Below, piece by piece: positions 3,311-46,891 of a stretch of DNA of 64,000 bases. The stretch is from Sulfuricella sp. GTDB taxonomy: Bacteria; Pseudomonadota; Gammaproteobacteria; Burkholderiales; Sulfuricellaceae. The DNA lies in the NCBI GenBank assembly GCA_031426955.1, contig JASJPA010000001.1:18152-82151 (forward strand). The letters are read 5' to 3'. Within the stretch, counting starts at the first letter, position 1. The number at the start of each line of letters is the position of its first letter. Below the pieces are notes generated by a model. That model searched no databases and was not told the DNA's origin. It saw nothing but the letters and a program-made list of their open reading frames with translations. Made by a program: the position numbers and the translations under genes.

Positions 3311-4687
3311 ATGTTAAGCCTGAGTGCAGCAGCCAAGGCCCTGAACGCTGAAACCAGCGGTGCGGACGTGACGTTCTCCGGCGTCACCACCGACAGCCGT
3401 GCGGTGGCGGCCGGCGATTTGTTCGTGGCGCTGAAGGGCGAACGTTTCGATGGGCACAATTACGTCAAGCAGGTGATGGAACAGGGCGCAGCCGCAGCAC
3501 TGGTGGAGCGGCGCGACCCGGCCTGGGGCGATTTCCCGCTGCTGGTTGTCAAGGATGCGCGCCTTGCTCTGGGTGAACTGGCCGGTTACTGGCGCAGCCG
3601 CTTCACCATTCCCGTGGTGGCGCTCACCGGCAGCAGCGGCAAGACCACGGTGAAGGAAATGATCGCAGCGATCCTGCGGGCTCAGACCGGCGTGGCCGAT
3701 CAGGTGCTCGCGACCAAGGGCAACCTCAACAACGACATCGGCATGCCGCTGACGCTGCTCGGATTGCGCGACACCCATCGCTACGCCGTGATCGAGATGG
3801 GCATGAACCATCCGGGCGAGATCGCGTATCTGTCCAGGATCGCCAGGCCCGATGTGGCGCTGATCATCAATGCCCAGGCCGCCCATCTGGCGGGTTTGGG
3901 CACGGTGGAGGCGGTGGCTCGTGCCAAGGGCGAGATTTTCCAGGGCCTGGCCGCCAACGGTACCGCCGTGATCAACGCCGACGACCCTCATGCGGCACTG
4001 TGGCAGGAACTGGCGGGGGCTCATCCCATCATCCGCTTCGGCCTCGAGCAGCAGGCAGAAGTGTCGGCCAGCTTCAAATTGCAGCCCTTCGGCAGTGCAA
4101 TCGAGGTGGTCACTCCCGCCGGTAAATTTGCTGTCGCCTTGCCGGTACCGGGCGAGCACAACGTGCGCAACGCCCTGGCGGCCACTGCCGTGGCTCAGGC
4201 TCTGGGTGTCGACAACGCAACCGTCGCCGCGGGGCTGGCAAAGGTTTCCAGCGTCAAGGGCCGGCTGCTGAAAAATCCCTGCCTGCACGGCGCCACCATG
4301 ATCGACGATACCTACAACGCCAACCCCGGCTCGGTACGGGCGGCGATCGCCGTGCTCGCCGGCATGCCGGGCAAGAAGGTGCTGGTGCTCGGCGACATGG
4401 GCGAACTGGGCGAAAACGCACGCGCGCTGCATGCCGAAATCGGCGCGGCGGCGAAGGCGGCCGGGATCGACCTGCTGTTCACCCTGGGCGATCTGAGCGC
4501 CGCTGCTGCGCAGGCTTTCGGCGAGGGCGGACGGCATTTCGAATATATCGAGGACCTGCTGCACGATATCGAAAACCTGCTGGCGCCGGATGTGACGGTA
4601 CTGGTGAAGGGGTCGCGTTTCATGCAGATGGAGCGGGTAGTGAAAAGTTTCGAGCTGAAGGGGGATTCGACATGCTGCTCGCACTGA
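3311..4687 (+). CDS. murF: UDP-MurNAc-pentapeptide synthetase
   Basis: [23 protein letters not shown] and GDMGELG motifs. Confidence 0.97.
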
Positions 4688-5757
4688 CCCAATGGCTGGG
4701 GCACGACATTCGCGCCTTCAACGTGTTCAGTTACATCACGCTGCGCGCGGTGCTGGCGATGCTGACCGCGCTGATGATCTCGTTCATCGTCGGTCCGACC
4801 ATGATCCGCAAGCTCACCGCCTACAAGATCGGCCAGTCGGTACGCGACGACGGTCCGCAGACGCATCTGGTCAAGGCGGGAACGCCGACCATGGGCGGCG
4901 CGCTGATCCTGGTTGCGATGGCGATTTCCACCCTGCTCTGGGCGGACCTGAGAAACACTTATGTCTGGGTCGTGCTGGCCACCACGCTGGGATTCGGTGC
5001 AATCGGCTGGGTCGATGACTGGCGCAAGGTGGTGCATCGCAATCCCAAGGGGCTGTCGGCCAAGGCCAAGTATTTCTGGCAGTCGCTGATCGGAGTTAGT
5101 GTTGCCGCGTTCCTTGCCATGACGGCCACGCTGCCGGCCCATACCGAACTGATCGTGCCCTTCTTCAAGATGCTGACGATTCCTCTCGGCGGCGTGGGCT
5201 TCGTCGTGCTGACCTATTTCGTCATCGTCGGCAGCAGCAACGCGGTCAACCTCACCGACGGGCTGGATGGCCTGGCGATCATGCCGACGGTGATGGTGGC
5301 GGGCGCGCTGGCGCTTTTCGCCTACGTTGCCGGCCACTTCGTTTTTTCGCGTTACCTCGGTGTTCCCTACGTGCCGGGCGCCGGCGAATTGGCCGTGTTC
5401 TGCACCGCCCTGGCCGGAGCCGGTCTGGGGTTCCTCTGGTTCAATGCCTACCCCGCCGAAGTGTTCATGGGCGATGTGGGCGCGCTGGCGCTGGGCGCCG
5501 CGATCGGCGTGGTGGCGGTGATCGTGCGGCAGGAGATCGTCCTGTTCGTGATGGGCGGAGTGTTCGTGGTGGAAACCCTGTCGGTAGTGCTCCAGGTGGC
5601 GTCGTTCAAGCTTACCGGCAAGCGCATCTTCCGCATGGCGCCTCTGCATCACCATTATGAGTTGAAGGGCTGGAAAGAAAACCAGGTGGTGGTTCGCTTC
5701 TGGATCATATCGATGATGCTGGTGCTGGTGGGGTTGTCCACCCTGAAACTGAGATGA
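4672..5757 (+). CDS. mraY: Phospho-MurNAc-pentapeptide transferase
   Basis: Multi-TM; [16 protein letters not shown] and MAPLHHHYE motifs. Confidence 0.98.
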
Positions 5758-5763
5758 GTAGGC

Positions 5764-5844
5764 GTAGGTCGGGCACCCCGTGCCCGACAAACCCAAATCA
5801 CCATACCCCCAAATTATTTGTTGGGCACGGGGTGCCCAACCTAC
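5764..5844. repeat. GTAG-family REP doublet (REPIN-like)
   Basis: GTAGGTCGGGCACCCCGTGCCCGAC (5764-5788) with inverted copy GTTGGGCACGGGGTGCCCAACCTAC (5820-5844). Confidence 0.9.
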
Positions 5845-5868
5845 ATGGCTTTCGACGTTGAAATTGAG

Positions 5869-7257
5869 ATGAGCTTGAACCTCGAACATAAAAAAGTGCT
5901 GGTGGTGGGGCTGGGCGACACCGGCCTCTCCATGGCGCGCTGGCTGGACGCGAGAGGCGCGGTCGTGGCTGTCGCCGACTCGCGCGACAACCCGCCCCAC
6001 GCCGCACGCCTTCAGGCTGAACTGCCTGGCGTGCCGCTATTCACCGGCAAGCTCAGGGAAGAAGTCTTCCGCAATGCCGACCTGCTCGCGGTCAGTCCGG
6101 GCGTTTCCCTGCGCGAACCGGCCGTTGCCGATGCGCTGGCGCACGGCGTGGAAGTGGTCGGGGATGTCGAGCTGTTTGCTCAGGCACTCAGGACTCAGGA
6201 CTTGGAACTCCGGACTCGGGTTCTGGCCATTACCGGCTCCAATGGCAAGAGCACGGTGACCGAGATGGTCGGTGCGATGTGCAAGAAGGCCGGCCTGCAT
6301 ACGGTCGTGGCGGGAAATATCGGCCTGCCGGTGCTGGATGCATTGGGCGATCTGGATCAGCGCGGCGAGACCGCCGACGTGTTCGTTATCGAACTCTCCA
6401 GTTTCCAGCTGGAAACCACGCACACCCTGAACCCGGCTGCAGCGACCGTGCTCAACGTGACCGAAGACCACATGGACCGCTACAACGGCATGGAGGATTA
6501 CGCCGCGGCCAAAGAGCGCATTTTTGCCGGCAACGGCATTCAGGTGCTGAACCGGGAAGACCGCTACAGCTTGGCGATGGCGAAGCCCGATCGCAGGGTG
6601 ATGACGTTTGGCCTGGATGCGCCACAAAAACCCGAGGACTGGGGTTTGCTGGACGACGAGAACGGCCCGTGGCTGTCGCAGGGCGGAAATCGGCTGATGC
6701 CGTTAGCCGATCTGCCGCTTGCCGGCTTGCACAACGCGGCCAATGCGCTGGCCGCTCTGGCCTTGTGCCGCGCCATCGACCTGCCGCTCCAGCCCCTGAT
6801 CGAGGCGCTGCGCGAATTCAAGGGCTTGCCGCACCGGGTGGAGAAAGTGGCGGAGATTAATGGGGTGACCTTCTATGACGATTCCAAGGGAACCAACGTA
6901 GGAGCCACGGTGGCGGCGCTCAACGGCATGCCGTGCAAAGTGGTGCTGATTGCCGGCGGCGATGGCAAGGGCCAGGATTTCGGCCCGCTAGCACCGGCAG
7001 TGTCTGCCCATGCCCGAGCCGTCGTGCTGATCGGCCGCGATGGCCCAATAATCGGTGCGGCCCTGGCCGGCTGTGGCGTGCCCCTTCTCTCTGCTGCGAA
7101 TATGGAGGAGGCGGTGATCCTGGGATTCGAGCAGGCCCAGCCGGGTGACGCGGTGCTGCTGTCGCCGGCCTGCGCCAGTTTCGACATGTTCCGCAACTAC
7201 GAACATCGCGCCCAGGTATTTATCGCCGCAGTCAAAAAACTGGAGGAGGAAGCATGA
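5869..7257 (+). CDS. murD: UDP-MurNAc-L-Ala:D-Glu ligase; likely start ATG 5869
   Basis: [26 protein letters not shown] and SPACASFD motifs. Confidence 0.97.
6186..6220 (+). repeat. Five ACTCAGG-like heptamers inside murD
   Basis: actcagg actcagg acttgga actccgg actcggg, read as TQDLELRTR just before the P-loop strand. Confidence 0.7.
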
Positions 7258-8417
7258 ATTCCTATTCTCCGGTAGCCGCCCAGCACGCCAGACCCGACTA
7301 CGACCGCACCCTGCTGTGGCTGGTGATCCTGCTGCTCGGTTTCGGGCTGGTGATGGTGTATTCCTCCTCGATCGCCATCGCCGCAGCGAGCAAACACACC
7401 GGTTTCCAGGAAAGCTATTACCTGGTGCGGCAGGCAGTTTTCCTCGGCGTCGGTGCCTTGTTCGGCCTGTTTGCCTTCCAGGTGCCGAACAAGGTGTTGC
7501 AGGAAACCGCGCCCTATTTGTTCCTTTCCGGCCTGGTGCTGCTGGTGCTGGTGCTGATTCCCGGCATCGGTCGCGAGGTCAACGGCAGCCAGCGCTGGCT
7601 GTCACTGGTGGTGATCAATCTGCAGCCGTCCGAGTTCATGAAGCTGTTCGCGGTGCTCTACGCCGCCGATTACACGGTGCGCAAGGCGGCTTACATGGAC
7701 AACATCAAGAAGGGCTTCCTGCCGATGTTCATGGTGATGCTGCTGGTCGGCGGCCTGCTGCTGCGGGAACCGGATTTCGGCGCCTTCGCCGTGATCACCA
7801 GCATCGCCATGGCGATACTGTTCCTCGGCGGCATGAACTGGCGGCTGTTCGCCGGCCTCATCGCCATGCTGCTGGTGGGCTTCCTGGTGCTGATCTGGAC
7901 CTCGCCCTACCGCATGCAGCGCATTATCGGATTCATGGATCCCTGGGCCGACCCCTACGGCAAGGGCTACCAGCTTTCCCACGCGCTGATCGCCTTCGGC
8001 CGCGGCGAATGGTACGGAGTCGGTCTGGGCGCGAGCGTCGAAAAACTGTTCTATCTGCCGGAAGCGCACACCGACTTCCTGCTCGCAGTGATCGCCGAAG
8101 AGCTCGGGTTTGCCGGTGTCGCCGTGGTGCTCCTGCTGTTCGTCTGGCTGACCGTCCGCGCTTTCTCCATCGGCCGCCAGGCGGCCGGGATCGACCGCCA
8201 TTTTGCCGCACTGGTGGCCTACGGAATCGGCATCTGGCTGGCGGTGCAGGCGATCATCAACATGGGCGTGAACATGGGCCTGTTGCCGACCAAGGGCCTG
8301 ACCCTGCCCTTGCTGTCATTCGGCGGCAGCGGAATTGCCGCCAACTGCACTGCGATAGGGGTGCTGCTGCGGGTGGACTGGGAGAACCGGCAGGTGATGA
8401 AGGGGTACTCGGTATGA
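7254..8417 (+). CDS. ftsW: SEDS-family peptidoglycan polymerase
   Basis: Multi-TM; [15 protein letters not shown] and SFGGS motifs. Confidence 0.97.
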
Positions 8418-9619
8418 GTCATGAAGAAGTGAGGAGTGAGGGGTTAGGGGTGAGGAGTAAAACCTCCCACCGCGCCGCCTTTGACTCTACTCCTCACTCC
8501 TCACGCCTCACTCCTCACGGGGTTTCACGCACCATCCTCATCATGGCGGGCGGCACCGGCGGGCACGTGTTCCCGGCCCTGGCCGTGGCGGATTATCTGA
8601 AAGGGCGCGACTGGAACGTGGTGTGGCTGGGCACCCGTGCCGGCATGGAAGCGCGGCTGGTGCCGGAAAAGGGTTACGAAATGGCCTGGGTCAAGTTCGC
8701 CGGCATGCGCGGCAAGGGCGTGTTGCGCTGGGCGGCGCTGCCGCTCATGCTGCTGCTGGCGATGTGGCAGAGTGCGGCGGCGATATTCCGCATCCGCCCC
8801 GATGTGGTGCTCGGCATGGGCGGCTTCACGGCTTTCCCCGGCGGCCTGATGGCTTCCCTGCTGGCCAAGCCCCTGGTGATCCACGAGCAGAACTCAGTGG
8901 CCGGTCTGACCAACCGGGTGCTGGCCTGCCTCGCCGATCGTATCATGGTGGGCTTCCCGTCGGCCTTCAACAACCCCGGCGACAAGCCGATCGGCTGCCG
9001 CAAACCGGCTTTTGACTGGTGCGGCAATCCAGTGCGCGCCGATATCGCCGCCCTGCCTGCTCCTGAACAACGGATGGCCGGTCGTCAGGGCAAGCTGCGC
9101 CTGCTGGTGGTTGGCGGCAGCCTGGGTGCTGCGGCGTTGAACGATGCGGTGCCGCAGGCGCTGGCGCTGATTGCAGAAGCCGACCGTCCCGAGGTGATCC
9201 ATCAGTCCGGCGCCAGGAACCTGGAAAAGCTCAGTGCCAACTATGCCGCTGCCGGTGTCGCCGCCGACGCCCGCGCCTTCATCGACGACATGGCTCAGAT
9301 GTATGCCTGGTGCGACGTGATCGTGTGCCGGGCGGGAGCGCTGACCCTGGCCGAAGTGACTGCCGCCGGTGTGGCCAGCGTGCTGGTGCCTTACCCGCAC
9401 GCGGTGGACGACCACCAAACCGGCAACGCCCGCTTCCTGAGCGAGAACGGCGCGGCGGTGCTGCTGCCGCAGACCGAATTGAACGCGGAAAAACTGGCGG
9501 AACTGCTGCATGGTTTTACCCGCGAGAAGTTGCTGGCGATGGCGCAGGCGGCGAAAAAATTGGCCAAGCCAGAAGCCACGGCGGACGTGGCGAGGGTGTG
9601 CATGGAGCTGGCGAAATGA
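8414..9619 (+). CDS. murG: Lipid II GlcNAc transferase with a repeat-derived N-terminal insertion
   Basis: AGGTGGH, HEQN and DDHQTGNA motifs; ATGA overlap with ftsW stop. Confidence 0.96.
8429..8518. repeat. Heptamer-built inverted repeat (31-bp arms) inside the murG 5' coding region
   Basis: Left arm 8429-8459 gtgaggagtgaggggttaggggtgaggagta; right arm 8488-8518 tactcctcactcctcacgcctcactcctcac. Confidence 0.92.
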
Positions 9620-9630
9620 ATATTTATTTG

Positions 9631-9735
9631 AACCGCAGAGGCGCAGAGACGCAGAGAAACGCAAAAACAAATGCAAGGGCTCTGCGTATGCAAAGGAATT
9701 CTTGGTTTTCTCCGCGTCTCTGCGCCTCTGCGGTT
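9631..9735. repeat. CGCAGAGR octamer-built inverted repeat between murG and murC
   Basis: 29-bp arms at 9631-9659 and 9707-9735 with one mismatch. Confidence 0.92.
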
Positions 9736-9749
9736 AAGGGTTTAAAAAC

Positions 9750-11138
9750 ATGAAACACAAAGTCAAACACGTCCATTTCGTAGGCATCGGCGGCGTCGGC
9801 ATGAGCGGTATCGCCGAGGTGCTGCTCAACCTGGGTTACGAAGTAAGCGGTTCCGATCTGGGCGACAACGTCGCCACGCGTCGGCTGAAGAGTCTGGGCG
9901 CCCAGGTGTATCAGGGCCACGCCGCCAGCAATCTGGAGCGCGCCGATGTGGTGGTGATCTCCACCGCGGTCCAGGCCGACAACCCGGAAGTGGCGGCAGC
10001 GCGGGAGCGCAACATCCCGGTGGTGCCGCGCGCCATGATGCTGGCGGAGCTGATGCGCTTCAAGCAAGGCATTGCGGTGGCCGGCACCCACGGCAAGACC
10101 ACGACCACCAGCCTGATCGCCAGCATCCTCGGCGAGGCGGGCATGGACCCGACTTTCGTTATCGGTGGCAAGCTGGAGGCGGCCGGCGCCAATGCGCGGC
10201 TGGGCCAAGGCGAATTCATCGTCGCCGAGGCGGACGAGTCCGATGCCTCCTTCCTCTACCTGACTCCGGTGATGGCGGTGGTGACCAATATCGATGCCGA
10301 TCACATGGAAACCTACGGCCACGATTTCGGCCGGCTGAAGCAGGCCTTCGTCGATTTCATCCAGCGCCTGCCGTTCTACGGCATGGCGGTGCTGTGCGCC
10401 GACGATGCCAACGTGCGCGAGATCATGCCGCGCATCACCAAGCAGGTAACCACCTACGGCGTGTCAGAATCGGCGCAGGTGCGCGCGACCGACATCAGCC
10501 ATTGCGGTGGCCAGATGTGCTTCAAGGTGCAGCGCGCCGGCCAGCCGGAACTGGCGGTCACGCTCAATTTTCCCGGCCAGCACAACGTACTGAATGCGCT
10601 GGCGGCGATTGCGGTGGCGATGGAAGTGGGCGCGCCGGATGCCGCCATCGTCAAGGGATTGGCCGAATTCCGCGGCGTCGGCCGGCGTTTCGAACGGTAT
10701 GGCGAGGTTTTCCTGCCGAGCGGCGGCAGCTTCACCCTGATTGACGATTACGGTCACCACCCGGTGGAAATGGCGGCAACACTGGCGGCGGCGCGCGGTG
10801 CCTTTCCCGGCCGGCGGCTGGTGTTGGCATTCCAGCCGCACCGTTACACCCGTACTCGCGATTTGTTCGAGGATTTCGTCAAGGTGCTGTCTACCGTCGA
10901 CGCCCTGCTGCTGACCGAAGTCTACCCGGCCGGCGAAGCGCCGATCGTGGCCGCAGACGGCAGAGCATTGGCGCGTGCCATCCGGGTGGCGGGCAAGGTC
11001 GAGCCGATTTTCCTGGAGTCCGCGGTGGAACTGCCGCAGGCAATCATGAATGCGGTACGGGACGGCGATGTGGTGCTGACCATGGGCGCCGGGTCGATCG
11101 GCCAGGTGCCGGCAAAGCTGGTGAAGGGTGATGAGTGA
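9750..11138 (+). CDS. murC: UDP-MurNAc:L-Ala ligase
   Basis: [25 protein letters not shown] and DDYGHHP motifs. Confidence 0.98.
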
Positions 11139-11141
11139 TGA
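11121..11141 (+). repeat. Heptamer remnant (gtgaagg gtgatga gtgatga) forming the murC 3' end and stop
   Basis: Three tandem heptamers encode VKGDE and the TGA at 11136-11138. Confidence 0.55.
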
Positions 11142-11151
11142 GGGCAAAGGC

Positions 11152-12099
11152 ATGAACAGTGCGCTAATGCACGAATCCCGACAACTGCGCGGCGAGTTGC
11201 GCCGCAACGAGCCGATGAGCAAGCACACCAGCTGGCGCGTCGGCGGGCCGGCCGAGCGCTTTTACATTCCGGCGGATATCGCCGATTTGTCGCAGTTTTT
11301 GCAGGGGCTGGCGGCTGACGAGCCGGTGCACTTCATCGGCCTGGGCAGCAATTTGCTGGTGCGCGATGGCGGGGTACGCGGCACGGTGGTGCTTCTGCAC
11401 GGTGCGCTCAACCAGATCACGCTTACTCACGGAAAGCCGGGCGCGCCGGCCGGTGTTTACGCCGAAGCGGGTGTGGCCAGTCCCAAGGTGGCGCGATTTG
11501 CAGCCTTGAACGGTTTCGAAGGCGCCGAGTTTCTTGCCGGCATTCCCGGCACGGTGGGTGGTGCGCTGGCGATGAACGCCGGCTGCTACGGCGCCGAAAC
11601 CTGGCAATACGTGACCGAGGTGCTGACCATCGACAGTTTCGGCGAGTTGCGCCGCCGTACGCCGCAGGATTACGACATCGGCTACCGTCACGTGGCGCTC
11701 AAGGCGGGGAGCGGCAGCGAGTGGTTCGTCGCCGCCTGGTTCGCCTTCAGGCCCGGCAACGGTGAGGTTTCGCGGAAGAAGATCAAGGGCTTGCTGGAAA
11801 AGCGGGTGGCGAGCCAGCCGATCGGCACGCCCAATGCCGGCTCGGTGTTCCGCAATCCTCCCGGCGACCATGCGGCGCGACTGATCGAGGCGTGCGGCCT
11901 GAAGGGAACGACGATCGGCGGGGCGATGGTGTCGCCCAAGCATGCCAATTTCATCGTCAACGCCGGCGGAGCCACGGCAGCGGACATCGAGGCGCTGATC
12001 GCCAGGGTGCGGCAAACGGTCAAGGAACAGCACGGCGTGGAACTGGTGACGGAAGTAAGAGTAATCGGTGAGAAGTTAGGAGTAAGGAGTGAGGAGTAA
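11152..12099 (+). CDS. murB: UDP-N-acetylenolpyruvoylglucosamine reductase; start uncertain
   Basis: [26 protein letters not shown] and HANFIVN motifs. Confidence 0.96.
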
Positions 12100-12196
12100 A
12101 GGCATGCCAGGTGAAATCGACAATATGTTGACTGAGAAAGACGCGAGTGGAGAAATCGGGGTTTTTACCCCTCACTCCTCACCCCTCACTCCTCAC
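12068..12196. repeat. Heptamer-built inverted repeat (33-bp arms) straddling the murB stop and ddl start
   Basis: Left arm 12068-12100 and right arm 12164-12196 with 5 mismatches. Confidence 0.9.
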
Positions 12197-13102
12197 GTCT
12201 TTGGCAAGGTCGCGGTGCTGCTGGGCGGAAAATCCGCCGAGCGCGAGGTGTCGCTGAAGAGCGGCAATGCGGTGCTGGCGGCGCTCAAGCGCAGCGGTGT
12301 GGATGCGCACCCGTTCGATCCGGCCGAGCGGGAGCTGGGCGAGCTGAAGCGGGAGGGCTACCAGCGCGTCTTTATCGCCCTGCACGGCGGCCAGGGCGAA
12401 GACGGCACGGTGCAGGGCGCGCTGGCCCTGCTGGGTATTCCTTATACCGGCAGCGGCGTGCTGGCGTCTGCCCTGGCGATGGACAAATGGCGCAGCAAGC
12501 TGGTGTGGCAGGCGGCAGGGCTGCCGGTTCCCGCCTACGAGCTGCTCGATGCCGGCAGCGATTTTGCGGCGGTCGCCGCGCGCCTCGGCTTGCCGCTGTT
12601 CGTCAAGCCGGCCAACGAAGGCTCCAGCGTCGGCATCAGCAAGGTGAAGGCGGTTGAAGACCTGCGTGCCGCTTACGAGCTGGCGGCGCGTTACGACGAC
12701 CTGGTGATTGCCGAACAGTTCGTCGGTGGCGGCGAATACACCGCTGCGATTCTCGGCAATGATGCGCTGCCGGTGATCAAGATCGAGCCGGCCAACGAGT
12801 TCTACGATTACGAGGCGAAATACCTGCGCGACGACACCCGCTACCTTTGCCCGTGTGGGCTGTCAGCGGAACAGGAGAGCGAAATCCAGCGCCTGGCAAA
12901 ACGGGGCTATGCCGTGATCGGCGGCGCTGGCTGGGGGAGGGTGGATTTCCTGCTCGATGCGGCGGGCAAGCCGTACCTGCTGGAAGCCAACACCTCGCCC
13001 GGTATGACCGACCATAGCCTGGTGCCGATGGCGGCGCGGGCAGCGGGTTTGAGCTTTGAAGATTTGGTGATCAAGGTTCTTGAACTGGCTAGCGTGGAAT
13101 GA
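12104..13102 (+). CDS. ddlB: D-alanine--D-alanine ligase with a repeat-derived N-terminal extension; start ATG 12104 or 12125
   Basis: [24 protein letters not shown] and EANTSPGMT motifs. Confidence 0.96.
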
Positions 13103-13131
13103 ACGCCATGAACCCAGATTATTTGCTAGGC

Positions 13132-13177
13132 GTAGGTCGGGCTTTAGCCCGACATGTCGGGTTGAAACCCGACCTAC
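13132..13177. repeat. GTAG-family REP doublet
   Basis: GTAGGTCGGGCTTTAGCCCGAC-at-GTCGGGTTGAAACCCGACCTAC. Confidence 0.92.
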
Positions 13178-13194
13178 GATTCTGGAACTGAACC

Positions 13195-14001
13195 GTGTGG
13201 GATAAAACGCAGATGACCTTGTGGCTGGCAAACACGCTTTACGCCCTGGCGGCGGTGCTGCTGGTGTATGCCGTGCTGTTCCTGGTGGTGCATCTGCCGG
13301 TGTTTCCGCTGCGCAAGGTGGACGTCAAGGGAGAGCTGCAGCACGTCAACCGCGAGCAGGTGAAGTTCATCGTTGCACGCGAGATGAAGGGGAACTTCTT
13401 TACCCTCGATCTGAACCGCACCCGCGCGGCGTTCGAGAAGCTGCCCTGGGTGCGCAACGTGAACGTGAGGCGGCGCTGGCCGGACCGGCTGGAAGTGGCG
13501 ATCGAGGAGCATGTGGTGCTGGCACGCTGGGGGAGTTCGGCGCTGGTCAATACCCACGGCGAGCTGTTCAGGGCGGCTTCGAACGCGGTGCTGCCGGAGT
13601 TCAACGGCCCGGAAGACGCGGCCAGGGAAGTGACTGGGCATTATGAGGAATTCGGCCGGTTGCTCGAGCCGTTCAACCTGACTCTGACCCGCATGACCCT
13701 GTCGGACCGCCGTGCGTTGCAGCTCAAGCTGAATAATGGACTGGTAGTGGAATTGGGCAGGGAGAAGGTGCGCGAGCGCTTGGAGAAATTCGTCGGGGTG
13801 TACGGCCAGACTGTCGCCAAGCTCCCGCTATCCGTCGCCTACGCCGACCTGCGCTATGCCAACGGGTTTGCGGTGCGCTATCCGGAGATTGCAGAGAAGG
13901 CGGCAAAGAAGGCGCAGCCGGCAGCAAGGCCGAGTCAGGAAAGTTCGAAGAAAAAAGTCGGGTGGCGAAGTGATGTCTATGATCTGGCAACCGCCGTCTG
14001 A
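13195..14001 (+). CDS. ftsQ: Cell division protein FtsQ
   Basis: N-terminal TM, POTRA segment (LPWVRNVNVRRRWP), DLRYANG; precedes ftsA. Confidence 0.94.
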   Translation: MWDKTQMTLWLANTLYALAAVLLVYAVLFLVVHLPVFPLRKVDVKGELQHVNREQVKFIVAREMKGNFFTLDLNRTRAAFEKLPWVRNVNVRRRWPDRLEVAIEEHVVLARWGSSALVNTHGELFRAASNAVLPEFNGPEDAAREVTGHYEEFGRLLEPFNLTLTRMTLSDRRALQLKLNNGLVVELGREKVRERLEKFVGVYGQTVAKLPLSVAYADLRYANGFAVRYPEIAEKAAKKAQPAARPSQESSKKKVGWRSDVYDLATAV

Positions 14002-16455: not shown

Positions 16456-16465
16456 CCCGCGCGAT

Positions 16466-16534
16466 GTAGGTCGGGCTTCAGCCCGACATGTCGCCTAGAG
16501 GCGCCTACTTCTGGCGGGTTAAAACCCGACCTAC
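16466..16534. repeat. GTAG-family REP doublet after ftsZ
   Basis: GTAGGTCGGGCTTCAGCCCGAC (16466-16487) with inverted GGCGGGTTAAAACCCGACCTAC (16513-16534). Confidence 0.88.
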
Positions 16535-16642
16535 AATAGCAGCATCTGCAGGGTGTCGGTTTCGGTGCGAGAGTTGGCCTGCCACGCTCGCCGTGCTAAA
16601 CTGCCGGCCTCTGACAACACCATGATGCTCATGGGAAATTTC

Positions 16643-46814: not shown

Positions 46815-46891
46815 GGGCCTGTAGCTCAGTTGGTTAGAGCAGAGGACTCATAATCCTTTGGTCCACGGTTCAAGTCCGTGCGGGCCCACCA
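46815..46891 (+). tRNA. tRNA-Ile2 (CAT anticodon, lysidine type); automated tools may call it Met
   Basis: 77 nt cloverleaf; GGGCCTG/CGGGCCC acceptor stem, CT-CAT-AA loop, GGTTCAAGTCC T-arm, encoded CCA; position after rpoD. Confidence 0.92.

Follow-up and report, generated by a model that had tools for sequence, protein, structure and literature searches.

The window analysed in our study is a stretch of 64,000 nucleotides (nt) of Sulfuricella sp. DNA (contig JASJPA010000001.1, assembly GCA_031426955.1) that includes genes of the dcw cell-wall/division cluster. Where murB meets ddl, an inverted repeat (12068-12100 / 12164-12196) with 33-nt arms that are 85% complementary encloses a 63-nt loop, and the repeat itself carries the end of the murB coding sequence (CDS) and the beginning of the ddl CDS. 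The features of this junction, together with a second copy of the same element in murG, are the following.

8429-8518, forward strand: second copy of the element, in frame inside murG, just after the native ATG 8414
11128-12099, forward strand: murB CDS (UDP-N-acetylmuramate dehydrogenase; open reading frame (ORF) list and NCBIfam PRK13905, E 1.2e-115)
12068-12100, forward strand: left arm, heptads GTGAGAA GTTAGGA GTAAGGA GTGAGGA GTAAA
12076-12078, forward strand: TTA codon in heptad 2 (GTTAGGA), where the consensus GTGAGGA would give TGA in the murB frame
12091-12096, forward strand: GAGGAG, the Shine-Dalgarno (SD) sequence of ddl, inside the stem, 7 nt before the ATG and kept in five alleles
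12097-12099, forward strand: murB stop TAA, in the left arm
12101-12163, forward strand: loop, 63 nt, coding for about residues 1-20 of Ddl and atypical of the family
12104-12106, forward strand: most likely ddl start ATG, in the loop, conserved with GAGGAG in the window, L001, L205, L206 and L207
12104-13102, forward strand: ddl CDS (D-alanine--D-alanine ligase), 332 residues (NCBIfam PRK01372, E 5e-127, residues 32-330 matched)
12164-12196, forward strand: right arm, TTTA CCCCTCAC TCCTCAC CCCTCAC TCCTCAC, coding for part of the Ddl N-terminus

A preliminary description, made from the letters of the window alone, had already located the arms, the TAA at 12097-12099 and the GAGGAG 7 nt ahead of ATG 12104, and all of these coordinates hold; it had also placed the right arm directly ahead of the conserved FGKVAV of Ddl, and the two are indeed adjacent except that one Val codon lies between them. 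Read as its reverse complement, the right arm is GTGAGGA GTGAGGG GTGAGGA GTGAGGG GTAAA, and the general anatomy of the family is a palindromic repeat of ~90-130 nt composed of (GTGAGGN)4-5, a loop and (NCCTCAC)4. Several observations indicate that the murB-ddl repeat did not arise by chance. Matches to the 12-mer GGAGTGAGGAGT with at most one mismatch number 11 in the window, where 0.22 would be expected (0/100 shuffles), and every one falls in this element or in the copy at 8429-8518; a binomial estimate gives ~2e-5 inverted repeats of 28/33 quality within 120 nt per 64 kb; the GC (guanine plus cytosine) content drops to 46-52% over 12050-12200, as compared with 64-73% in the 100-nt windows of 11800-12049 and 12200-12699; and relatives have the element in the same place. 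Sulfuricella denitrificans skB26 (complete genome AP013066.1), whose Ddl is 91% identical to that of the window, has both copies at the same sites, murB-ddl and ftsW-murG, and the metagenomic relatives L205, L206 and L207 also have the element at murB-ddl. An Rfam search of the element returned only sub-threshold matches to generic hairpins (miRNA precursors), and no sigma-70-type promoter-like or terminator-like site was found in or beside it; the single terminator-like match in the 11700-12500 region scanned for terminators lies inside ddl (12422-12434) and is within shuffle expectation. In the window as a whole, a single Rfam match exceeded the gathering score, a tRNA gene at 46815-46888.

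The comparison covered the 64-kb window, a 21-kb locus of skB26 (its allele is L001) and further relatives: five close alleles were compared at the element (window, L001, L205, L206 and L207), six have the murB-ddl left arm (the same five and L209), and four ddl junctions without the element (L002, L211, L003 and L210) served for comparison. In the element-free orthologues MurB ends in ...VIGEKA*, a spacer of 1-20 nt follows, and Ddl begins M-x(4-5)-FGKVAV. The L002 junction consists of GTAATTGGAGAAAAGGCGTGA, 20 nt and ATGGCTGAAGCAAGACAATTTGGCAAA, which gives MurB ...VIGEKA* and a Ddl that begins MAEARQFGKVAV; the L211 junction reads ...GACAAGTGAGATGGCG, with a stop-to-start gap of 1 nt; and MurB of L210 also ends VIGEKA*. 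The usual N-terminus among 23 Ddl homologues is M-x(3-6)-FGKVAV. Because the element-free relatives show this native junction, the last 7 residues and the stop of MurB, the SD and start codon of ddl, and residues 1-32 of Ddl are derived from the element: the eight murB codons past the native GEK (TTA 12076 through TAA 12097-12099) all lie in the left arm, and the stretch MQVETGK...SPHPSPLTPHLFGK precedes the conserved Ddl fold, which begins at F33-GKVAV. The ortholog alignment proposed in the preliminary description was run and found both native junctions and orthologous copies of the element, and the element-free orthologues bear out its claim that the repeat supplies the C-terminus and stop of murB and the SD and N-terminus of ddl. 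Two further attributions were tried and rejected. One took the loop for what is left of the native junction, since both 'GGAGnAAAGGCrTG' and 'TGAGAAAGA' resemble L002, but it was unsupported in Smith-Waterman comparisons with shuffles (p = 0.07, 0.07 and 0.50); as to the other, the murB codons upstream of the arm (GAAGTAAGAGTAATC) cannot be taken for element heptads, given that the element-free L211 has GTAAGG codons at the same place.

The start codon of ddl deserves special attention, as Ddl could instead begin after the element, at GTG 12215, with the whole repeat as an untranslated spacer. This GTG is the only in-frame start downstream of the right arm, and gene callers do sometimes choose the shorter form in the analogous murG case (L209). 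Nevertheless, such a start would remove FGKVA of the first beta-strand, in which all of 33 Ddl homologues share G34, K35 and A37 and nearly all share F33 and V36; the codons that would be lost vary only synonymously among the alleles; and the GTG has no SD upstream and an opening cost of 15.5 kcal/mol. Between the right arm and FGKVAV there is no in-frame start codon, and the synonymous variation of the FGKVAV codons among alleles (TTT GGC AAG / TTC GGA AAA / TAC GGA AAA...) indicates that this region is translated. The start therefore lies upstream of the right arm, and a start at GTG 12215 is in our judgement highly improbable. Within the element, all five close alleles have ATG 12104 and GAGGAG, and their sole indel is a 12-nt deletion; ATG 12125 is not conserved.

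The sequence of the arms has direct consequences for reading frames. Each left-arm heptad (GTGAGG, GTAAGG or GTTAGG) holds a TGA, TAA or TAG as well as a GGAG motif, and since seven is not divisible by three, a run of three heptads is enough to close all three frames (TGA 12069, TGA 12090, TAA 12083 and TAA 12097 in the window). The right arm, (NCCTCAC)n, is stop-free in every frame. With this stop content an incoming ORF is ended within a few codons, SD-like sequences are offered, and an ORF started in the loop reads into the downstream gene. At the murB-ddl site, heptad 2 is GTTAGGA in 6/6 alleles with the left arm; the consensus heptad would end murB at 12076, 25 nt ahead of the ddl start, and the TTA extends it to TAA 12097, 4 nt ahead. 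In the skB26-type alleles CAA replaces this TAA and murB continues to a TGA that lies 11 nt into ddl, and in L209 the murB stop and the ddl start overlap as TGATG, so that the spacing from stop to start is +4 nt in the window, -11 nt in the skB26 type and -1 nt in L209. A comparable adjustment occurs in the second copy. The native murG ATG 8414 overlaps the ftsW TGA (ATGA), element-free murG (L003) starts ATGAGCCGCACC..., and the insert adds ~36 residues; the murG ORF is open across the whole element in five alleles (window, skB26, L206, L209 and L210). Heptad 3 of the murG copy is GTTAGGG in the window, by which a potential in-frame TGA is absent, and the critical triplet is TTA (GTTAGG) in four alleles and TCG in L210 (GTCGGGA). 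These variants are two independent repairs of an in-frame TGA and reveal selection on stop content.

It had been proposed in the preliminary description that pairing of the arms would sequester the ddl SD until ribosomes that finish murB unwind it. In the RNA folding proposed there and carried out here, the predicted stem encloses GAGGAG: in a 260-nt context the SD nucleotides have a probability of being unpaired of at most 0.06, and the AUG is ~0.9 unpaired. To open the ribosome-binding site (positions -18 to +12), the predicted cost is 17.4 kcal/mol for the window, 23.2-29.2 kcal/mol for L001, L205, L206 and L207, and 18.3 kcal/mol for L209, compared with 7.1-8.8 kcal/mol for the element-free ddl junctions L002, L211, L003 and L210; burial of the SD by the arms is thus borne out in silico. 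The hairpin alone folds at -48.5 kcal/mol in the window versus -68.0 kcal/mol in skB26. It is important to note that the fold z-score against dinucleotide shuffles (-1.6) is uninformative here, because shuffles of such a composition, half purine-rich and half pyrimidine-rich, fold well too. A translational coupling of murB to ddl enforced by this predicted structure is plausible.

Among the five alleles, mean pairwise identity is 91.5% in the left arm, 92.7% in the right arm and 78.5% in the loop, and the fourfold-degenerate sites of ddl have 79.7% identity in the same set. By these identities the arms are either constrained or homogenised; the peptide encoded by the loop is unconstrained, given that loop identity equals that of the fourfold-degenerate sites. 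AlphaFold2 assigns residues 1-28 of Ddl a predicted local distance difference test (pLDDT) score below 50 and predicts a normal Ddl fold from about residue 30, and the 32-residue tail is accordingly best described as probably unconstrained and disordered. The element had been called domesticated in the preliminary description; with a loop that evolves at the synonymous rate and a low-confidence tail, that term is overstated, and what we see is entrenchment, not gained function. The related claim that the element cannot be cleanly lost is overstated as well. Simple excision would indeed remove the ddl start, but L002, with its native junction, nests inside the element-bearing clade: in neighbour-joining trees with 300 bootstraps it is the sister of the element-bearing L207 in ddl (99%) and in 2.0 kb of ftsQ-ftsA (99%), and the pair joins the window, with skB26 excluded, at 94% bootstrap. 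The L002 Ddl N-terminus, MAEARQF, resembles those of distant element-free forms (MAEPRDF, MAEVRNF), for which reason its junction is of the ancestral type and not a deletion scar; given where it nests, there has been at least one loss of the element or its replacement by recombination, unless the element has been polymorphic. The element is therefore entrenched against simple excision, yet not irreversible.

In two groundwater metagenomes, contigs at ~1000x depth match the window sequence exactly, and bins of the arms there reach 2-6x the depth of their flanks; other contigs join the same arms to other loops (e.g. GATCAAAAACAACTCCATCGCCCG) and other flanks. Both observations indicate that the family is multi-copy in the source genome. 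The RNA data are Logan contigs from metatranscriptomes: one of 132 nt spans 12118-12249, from the loop into ddl, with 100% identity, and nothing usable was found among them over the left arm or at RNA ends. A metagenome scan for close Ddl relatives gave matches of at most 80% identity, which served the junction survey only. In L206, the contig of the metagenome-assembled genome of P0002, murB is called as two ORFs of 278 and 89 residues (4945-6011), which suggests a frameshift or an assembly error in the record.

As a definition of the family we used at least three tandem GTGAGGN units followed, 8-150 nt later and in that order, by complementary NCCTCAC units; this pattern was found in the murB-ddl element, in the copy at 8429-8518 and in 32 hairpins of other genomes. 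A scan of a genome collection for three heptads gave at least 120 loci (L005-L124) in many phyla. Among the matches listed, 43 of the 134 arms are paired, all with GTGAGG first and CCTCAC after it and 0 reversed, and the unpaired remainder are solo arrays of up to ~16 units. Similar hairpins occur in at least 10 phyla, with clear cases that have unrelated loops in Clostridia, Chloroflexota, Gemmatimonadota, Planctomycetota, Nostoc, Campylobacterota and many Betaproteobacteria. The betaproteobacterial hairpins sit in tight co-directional junctions (tatA-tatB, dnaK-dnaJ, ubiJ-ubiB), often with the upstream stop in the first heptad and the downstream ATG 2-15 nt past the right arm. Automatic classification of gene context left 14 of the 32 hairpins ambiguous, since GC-rich DNA abounds in spurious antisense ORFs. 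In sequence, the unit of the left arm is similar to an extended SD (AGGAG-TGA) and that of the right arm to the 3' tail of 16S rRNA. The murG copies (window, L001 and L210), L100 and the X1/X3 contigs have a conserved core in their loops (about GTAAAACC..CACCGCACCGC..TTTTGAC); it was not found in the murB-ddl copy, whose 63-nt loop is unrelated, and this copy is an atypical or remodelled member of its family. For the element-encoded peptide, a word-index search of other proteins found nothing, and an exhaustive HMMER search retrieved only the small ORFs P0121 and P0122 (40-46 residues), called over further copies elsewhere, with a 33-residue query that is poorly sensitive; these searches gave no evidence of a widespread in-frame capture in that frame.

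The same junction holds other repeats in other genomes. In a survey of murB-ddl junctions, 24/42 have the native distance of 17-68 nt, and many of the longer ones hold hairpins with other tandem units (GTGAAAT, CACGGAGAA, CGCAGATGAA, CGCAAAG and CGCAGAG), which makes the junction a hot spot. Other Nitrosomonadales have arms of GTGAAAT, CACGGAGAA, CGCAGATGAA and GGTGATG (L131, L132, L134, L152 and L208 at murB-ddl; L208 at ~1880-2036, ftsW-murG), and the Ddl of P0020 begins ...HHSSPITHH-AFGKVAV, apparently from a GTGATGG-type right arm. At the opposite end of the protein, the Gallionellaceae-type Ddl sequences P0021, P0039, P0041 and P0047 have C-terminal extensions such as IKNCSSRSLPRPLAGGESEARG and IKDCPSRLLPRPQAGEGWGVGDVG, which look like read-through into another GC-rich repeat 3' of ddl.

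Within the window, the six strongest short-range inverted repeats are all located at dcw gene junctions and belong to three families, and the remaining 47 kb contains no inverted repeat of comparable strength. These six, and the neighbouring genes annotated with NCBIfam, are as follows.

5764-5844: inverted repeat at mraY-murD
8429-8518: inverted repeat at ftsW-murG
9631-9735: inverted repeat at murG-murC
12068-12196: inverted repeat at murB-ddl
13131-13178: inverted repeat at ddl-ftsQ
16465-16535: inverted repeat at ftsZ-lpxC
7254-8417: ftsW, of the dcw cell-wall/division cluster
9750-11138: murC
13195-14001: ftsQ

Units of the GTAG type, as in REP elements, are found at 5764-5844, 13131-13178 and 16465-16535. 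At mraY-murD there is a REP-like doublet of the GTAGGTCGGGC type, and the native ATGA junction has been duplicated on either side of it over 15-21 nt: TGAAACTGAGATGAG (5744-5758) retains the mraY stop and TGAAATTGAGATGAG (5859-5873) retains the murD start; ATG 5845 is in frame with murD, and skB26 has a single native copy of this junction (L001, about 3768-3790). The murG-murC spacer is filled by a CGCAGAG-type hairpin with 37-nt arms that are 89% complementary, a type also found in the murB-ddl spacer of L210, and the CGCAAAG type is found in L003.

Taken together, these results lead us to favour, with moderate confidence, the explanation that the murB-ddl element is an entrenched selfish insertion whose obligatory coupling of the two genes is a side effect, and not a domesticated device. 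In the Sulfuricella denitrificans group the element takes the place of the native tight junction (MurB ...GEKA*, 1-20 nt, ATG); in the window murB ends at TAA 12097, and ddl starts at ATG 12104 behind GAGGAG and gains its 32-residue tail. In the mRNA, the paired arms would bury the ddl SD and free 30S subunits would initiate poorly; ribosomes on the last murB codons would melt the left arm and terminate 4 nt ahead of the ddl AUG, and ddl would be translated mainly through unfolding-dependent or termination-reinitiation coupling, both of which are established models (PMC12548453). Tight coupling would have been restored by the G-to-T change in heptad 2, through which the distance from the murB stop to the AUG falls from 25 to 4 nt.

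Several points weigh against this explanation. Covariation is weak, with one double-sided stem change among five alleles, and processes at the DNA level could conserve the arms instead; the stem of the window, with mismatches at positions where the sister alleles have none, is weaker than any other in the group, and the hairpin may seldom form if transcription and translation are closely coupled. The murG copy sits downstream of a native start that is not sequestered. In L208, murB retains its native stop ahead of the left arm, and ddl has an exposed start with an SD of its own (5-6 kcal/mol) midway in a loop of 83 nt; neither SD sequestration nor coupling is general to the family. Finally, the explanation gives no account of how the native stop, SD and start of an essential gene came to be replaced, and no target-site duplication is visible at the element.

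A part of these observations would also be expected if the element were tolerated junk, its entrenchment purely neutral, with a stem that rarely forms behind RNA polymerase and a ddl expressed much as from a native junction. The synonymous rate of the loop, the disordered tail, the element-free allele inside the clade, the open ribosome-binding site with which L208 copes, the degraded stem of the window and the tight coupling already present at native junctions are all in agreement with this. Even so, conservation is ~2.7-fold higher in the arms than at neutral sites, the murB stop always adjoins the ddl start in spite of its shifts, and the predicted opening cost exceeds that of native junctions by 10-20 kcal/mol, by which we hold complete neutrality to be a serious possibility although a rather unlikely one. 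Conservation of the arms might alternatively originate in the DNA, where gene conversion, hairpin-templated repair or recognition by a transposase or binding protein would keep them alike and RNA pairing would be incidental. The multiple copies of the family, the strict polarity of its arms (none reversed, with 43 paired of 134 among the matches listed), the near absence of compensatory changes and the similar hairpins in at least 10 phyla point in this direction; however, homogenisation is not evident, since within one genome the ddl copy differs from the murG copy in its heptad variants, and a murB stop that tracks the ddl start is left unexplained, which makes this alternative unlikely in our view. 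We give still less credit to an effect on the fate of the mRNA, whereby an RNase III/RNase E site or a REP-like 3' stabiliser would set the levels of murB versus ddl in the dcw transcript. The stem of ~33 bp is long enough for RNase III, palindromic elements lie at six dcw junctions of the window, relatives have hairpins of other units at this same junction, and REP/BIME elements stabilise upstream mRNA. Cleavage of the stem, in contrast, would remove the murB stop and the ddl SD, there is no terminator-like tail and no Rfam match, and the metatranscriptome contigs are too sparse to show ends.

A wider reading of the family, which we consider speculative and improbable as a whole, is that the GTGAGGN/NCCTCAC hairpins constitute an undescribed cross-phylum class of mobile 'intercistronic cassettes' whose sequence is shaped to be harmless in operons. 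The 5' arm would stop all three frames and present SD-like AGGAG motifs, the 3' arm would be stop-free and resemble the anti-SD tail of 16S rRNA, and the loop could host a start codon; such cassettes would preferentially colonise tight co-directional junctions and rewire coupling where they land, and their likeness across phyla would reflect the universality of SD and anti-SD rather than common descent. Independently of this reading, the empty and filled sites of close relatives illustrate how a selfish palindrome enters the tightest part of an essential operon and survives there: its own sequence gives a stop, a ribosome-binding site and an open exit frame, and the host then fixes single nucleotides by which in-frame stops are removed or the stop is moved beside the new start. 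The locus also offers a natural and testable case of structure-enforced coupling in the dcw cluster of a culturable organism, S. denitrificans skB26, and a warning for annotation, as the lengths of MurG, Ddl and MurB differ by 7-36 residues among close relatives purely through such elements.

A search of the literature by exact heptad strings found no description of a heptad-armed hairpin, and the family appears to be undescribed; in Xanthomonas and Nostoc, arrays of G-rich heptamers are known to lie between aligned ORFs (PMC4692102). The TMECO/PIT motif of E. coli, CCCTCNCCC-N3-6-GGGNGAGGG-N3-GGGNGAGGG, is a 37-nt, always intergenic sequence of three segments with a proposed intrastrand triplex, and is associated with local sequence variability (PMC4666352). 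It shares with our element the GGGTGAGGG/CCCTCACCC block, multiple copies and the lack of a known mobilising gene (PMC4666352), but the element, which is partly coding, is built of two long heptad arms around a loop of 28-63 nt. The REP/BIME/REPIN elements are abundant short palindromic repeats at gene ends, often in inverted hairpin-forming pairs (PMC3116915, PMC2817692). Our element is likewise a hairpin-forming palindrome, and the window also holds GTAGGTCGGGC-type REP-like doublets; compared with the REP unit, an imperfect palindrome of 20-40 nt with a conserved GTAG head, however, its arms are heptad arrays that are not palindromic singly and have no GTAG head, and it overlaps two CDSs where REPs are extragenic by definition. 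As for MITEs, which have terminal inverted repeats with a short target-site duplication on either side, comparison of empty (L002, L003) and filled sites showed no target-site duplication at either GTGAGGN copy, and ~44 nt of native junction are missing from the filled ones.

Coupling by RNA unfolding is exemplified by MS2 coat-lysis, f1 genes VII/IX and rpmI-rplT (PMC12548453). As in these cases, the downstream site is predicted in silico to be locked by pairing with the 3' end of the upstream ORF, with the stop beside the start; there the structure is formed by ordinary gene sequence, whereas here a repeat element would bring it ready-made and its function is a prediction. Start codons or intercistronic junctions of operons are the sites at which mycobacterial interspersed repetitive units (MIRUs) settle, and tight stop/start coupling there keeps the downstream gene translated and minimises harm; MIRUs are direct, often tandem units with a small ORF of their own and -4 overlaps, they are not hairpins, and burial of an SD has not been reported for them (PMC12548453). 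The ORF ends of our element similarly overlap or abut both flanking genes (+4, -11 and -1 nt). Unlike the 40-100-bp direct repeats of fixed orientation, it is palindromic, the same on both strands and fused to both ORFs. A third precedent is that of the Rickettsia palindromic elements (RPEs), reportedly described by Ogata et al. in 2000 as short selfish repeats in frame within protein genes, to which they add a segment of peptide that leaves the fold undisturbed. No RPE is known to supply a stop, an SD and a start at an operon junction, the sequence family and the host are unrelated, and RPE arms are not tandem heptads. Nevertheless, the murG copy behaves exactly like an RPE, with a frame open through the element in five alleles, and the ddl copy adds to this an N-terminal tail that is predicted to be disordered, ahead of a core predicted to be normal. 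RPEs, MIRUs and REP-like elements are the closest counterparts of the murB-ddl element, which is a tidy yet not unprecedented case of selfish DNA built into an operon.

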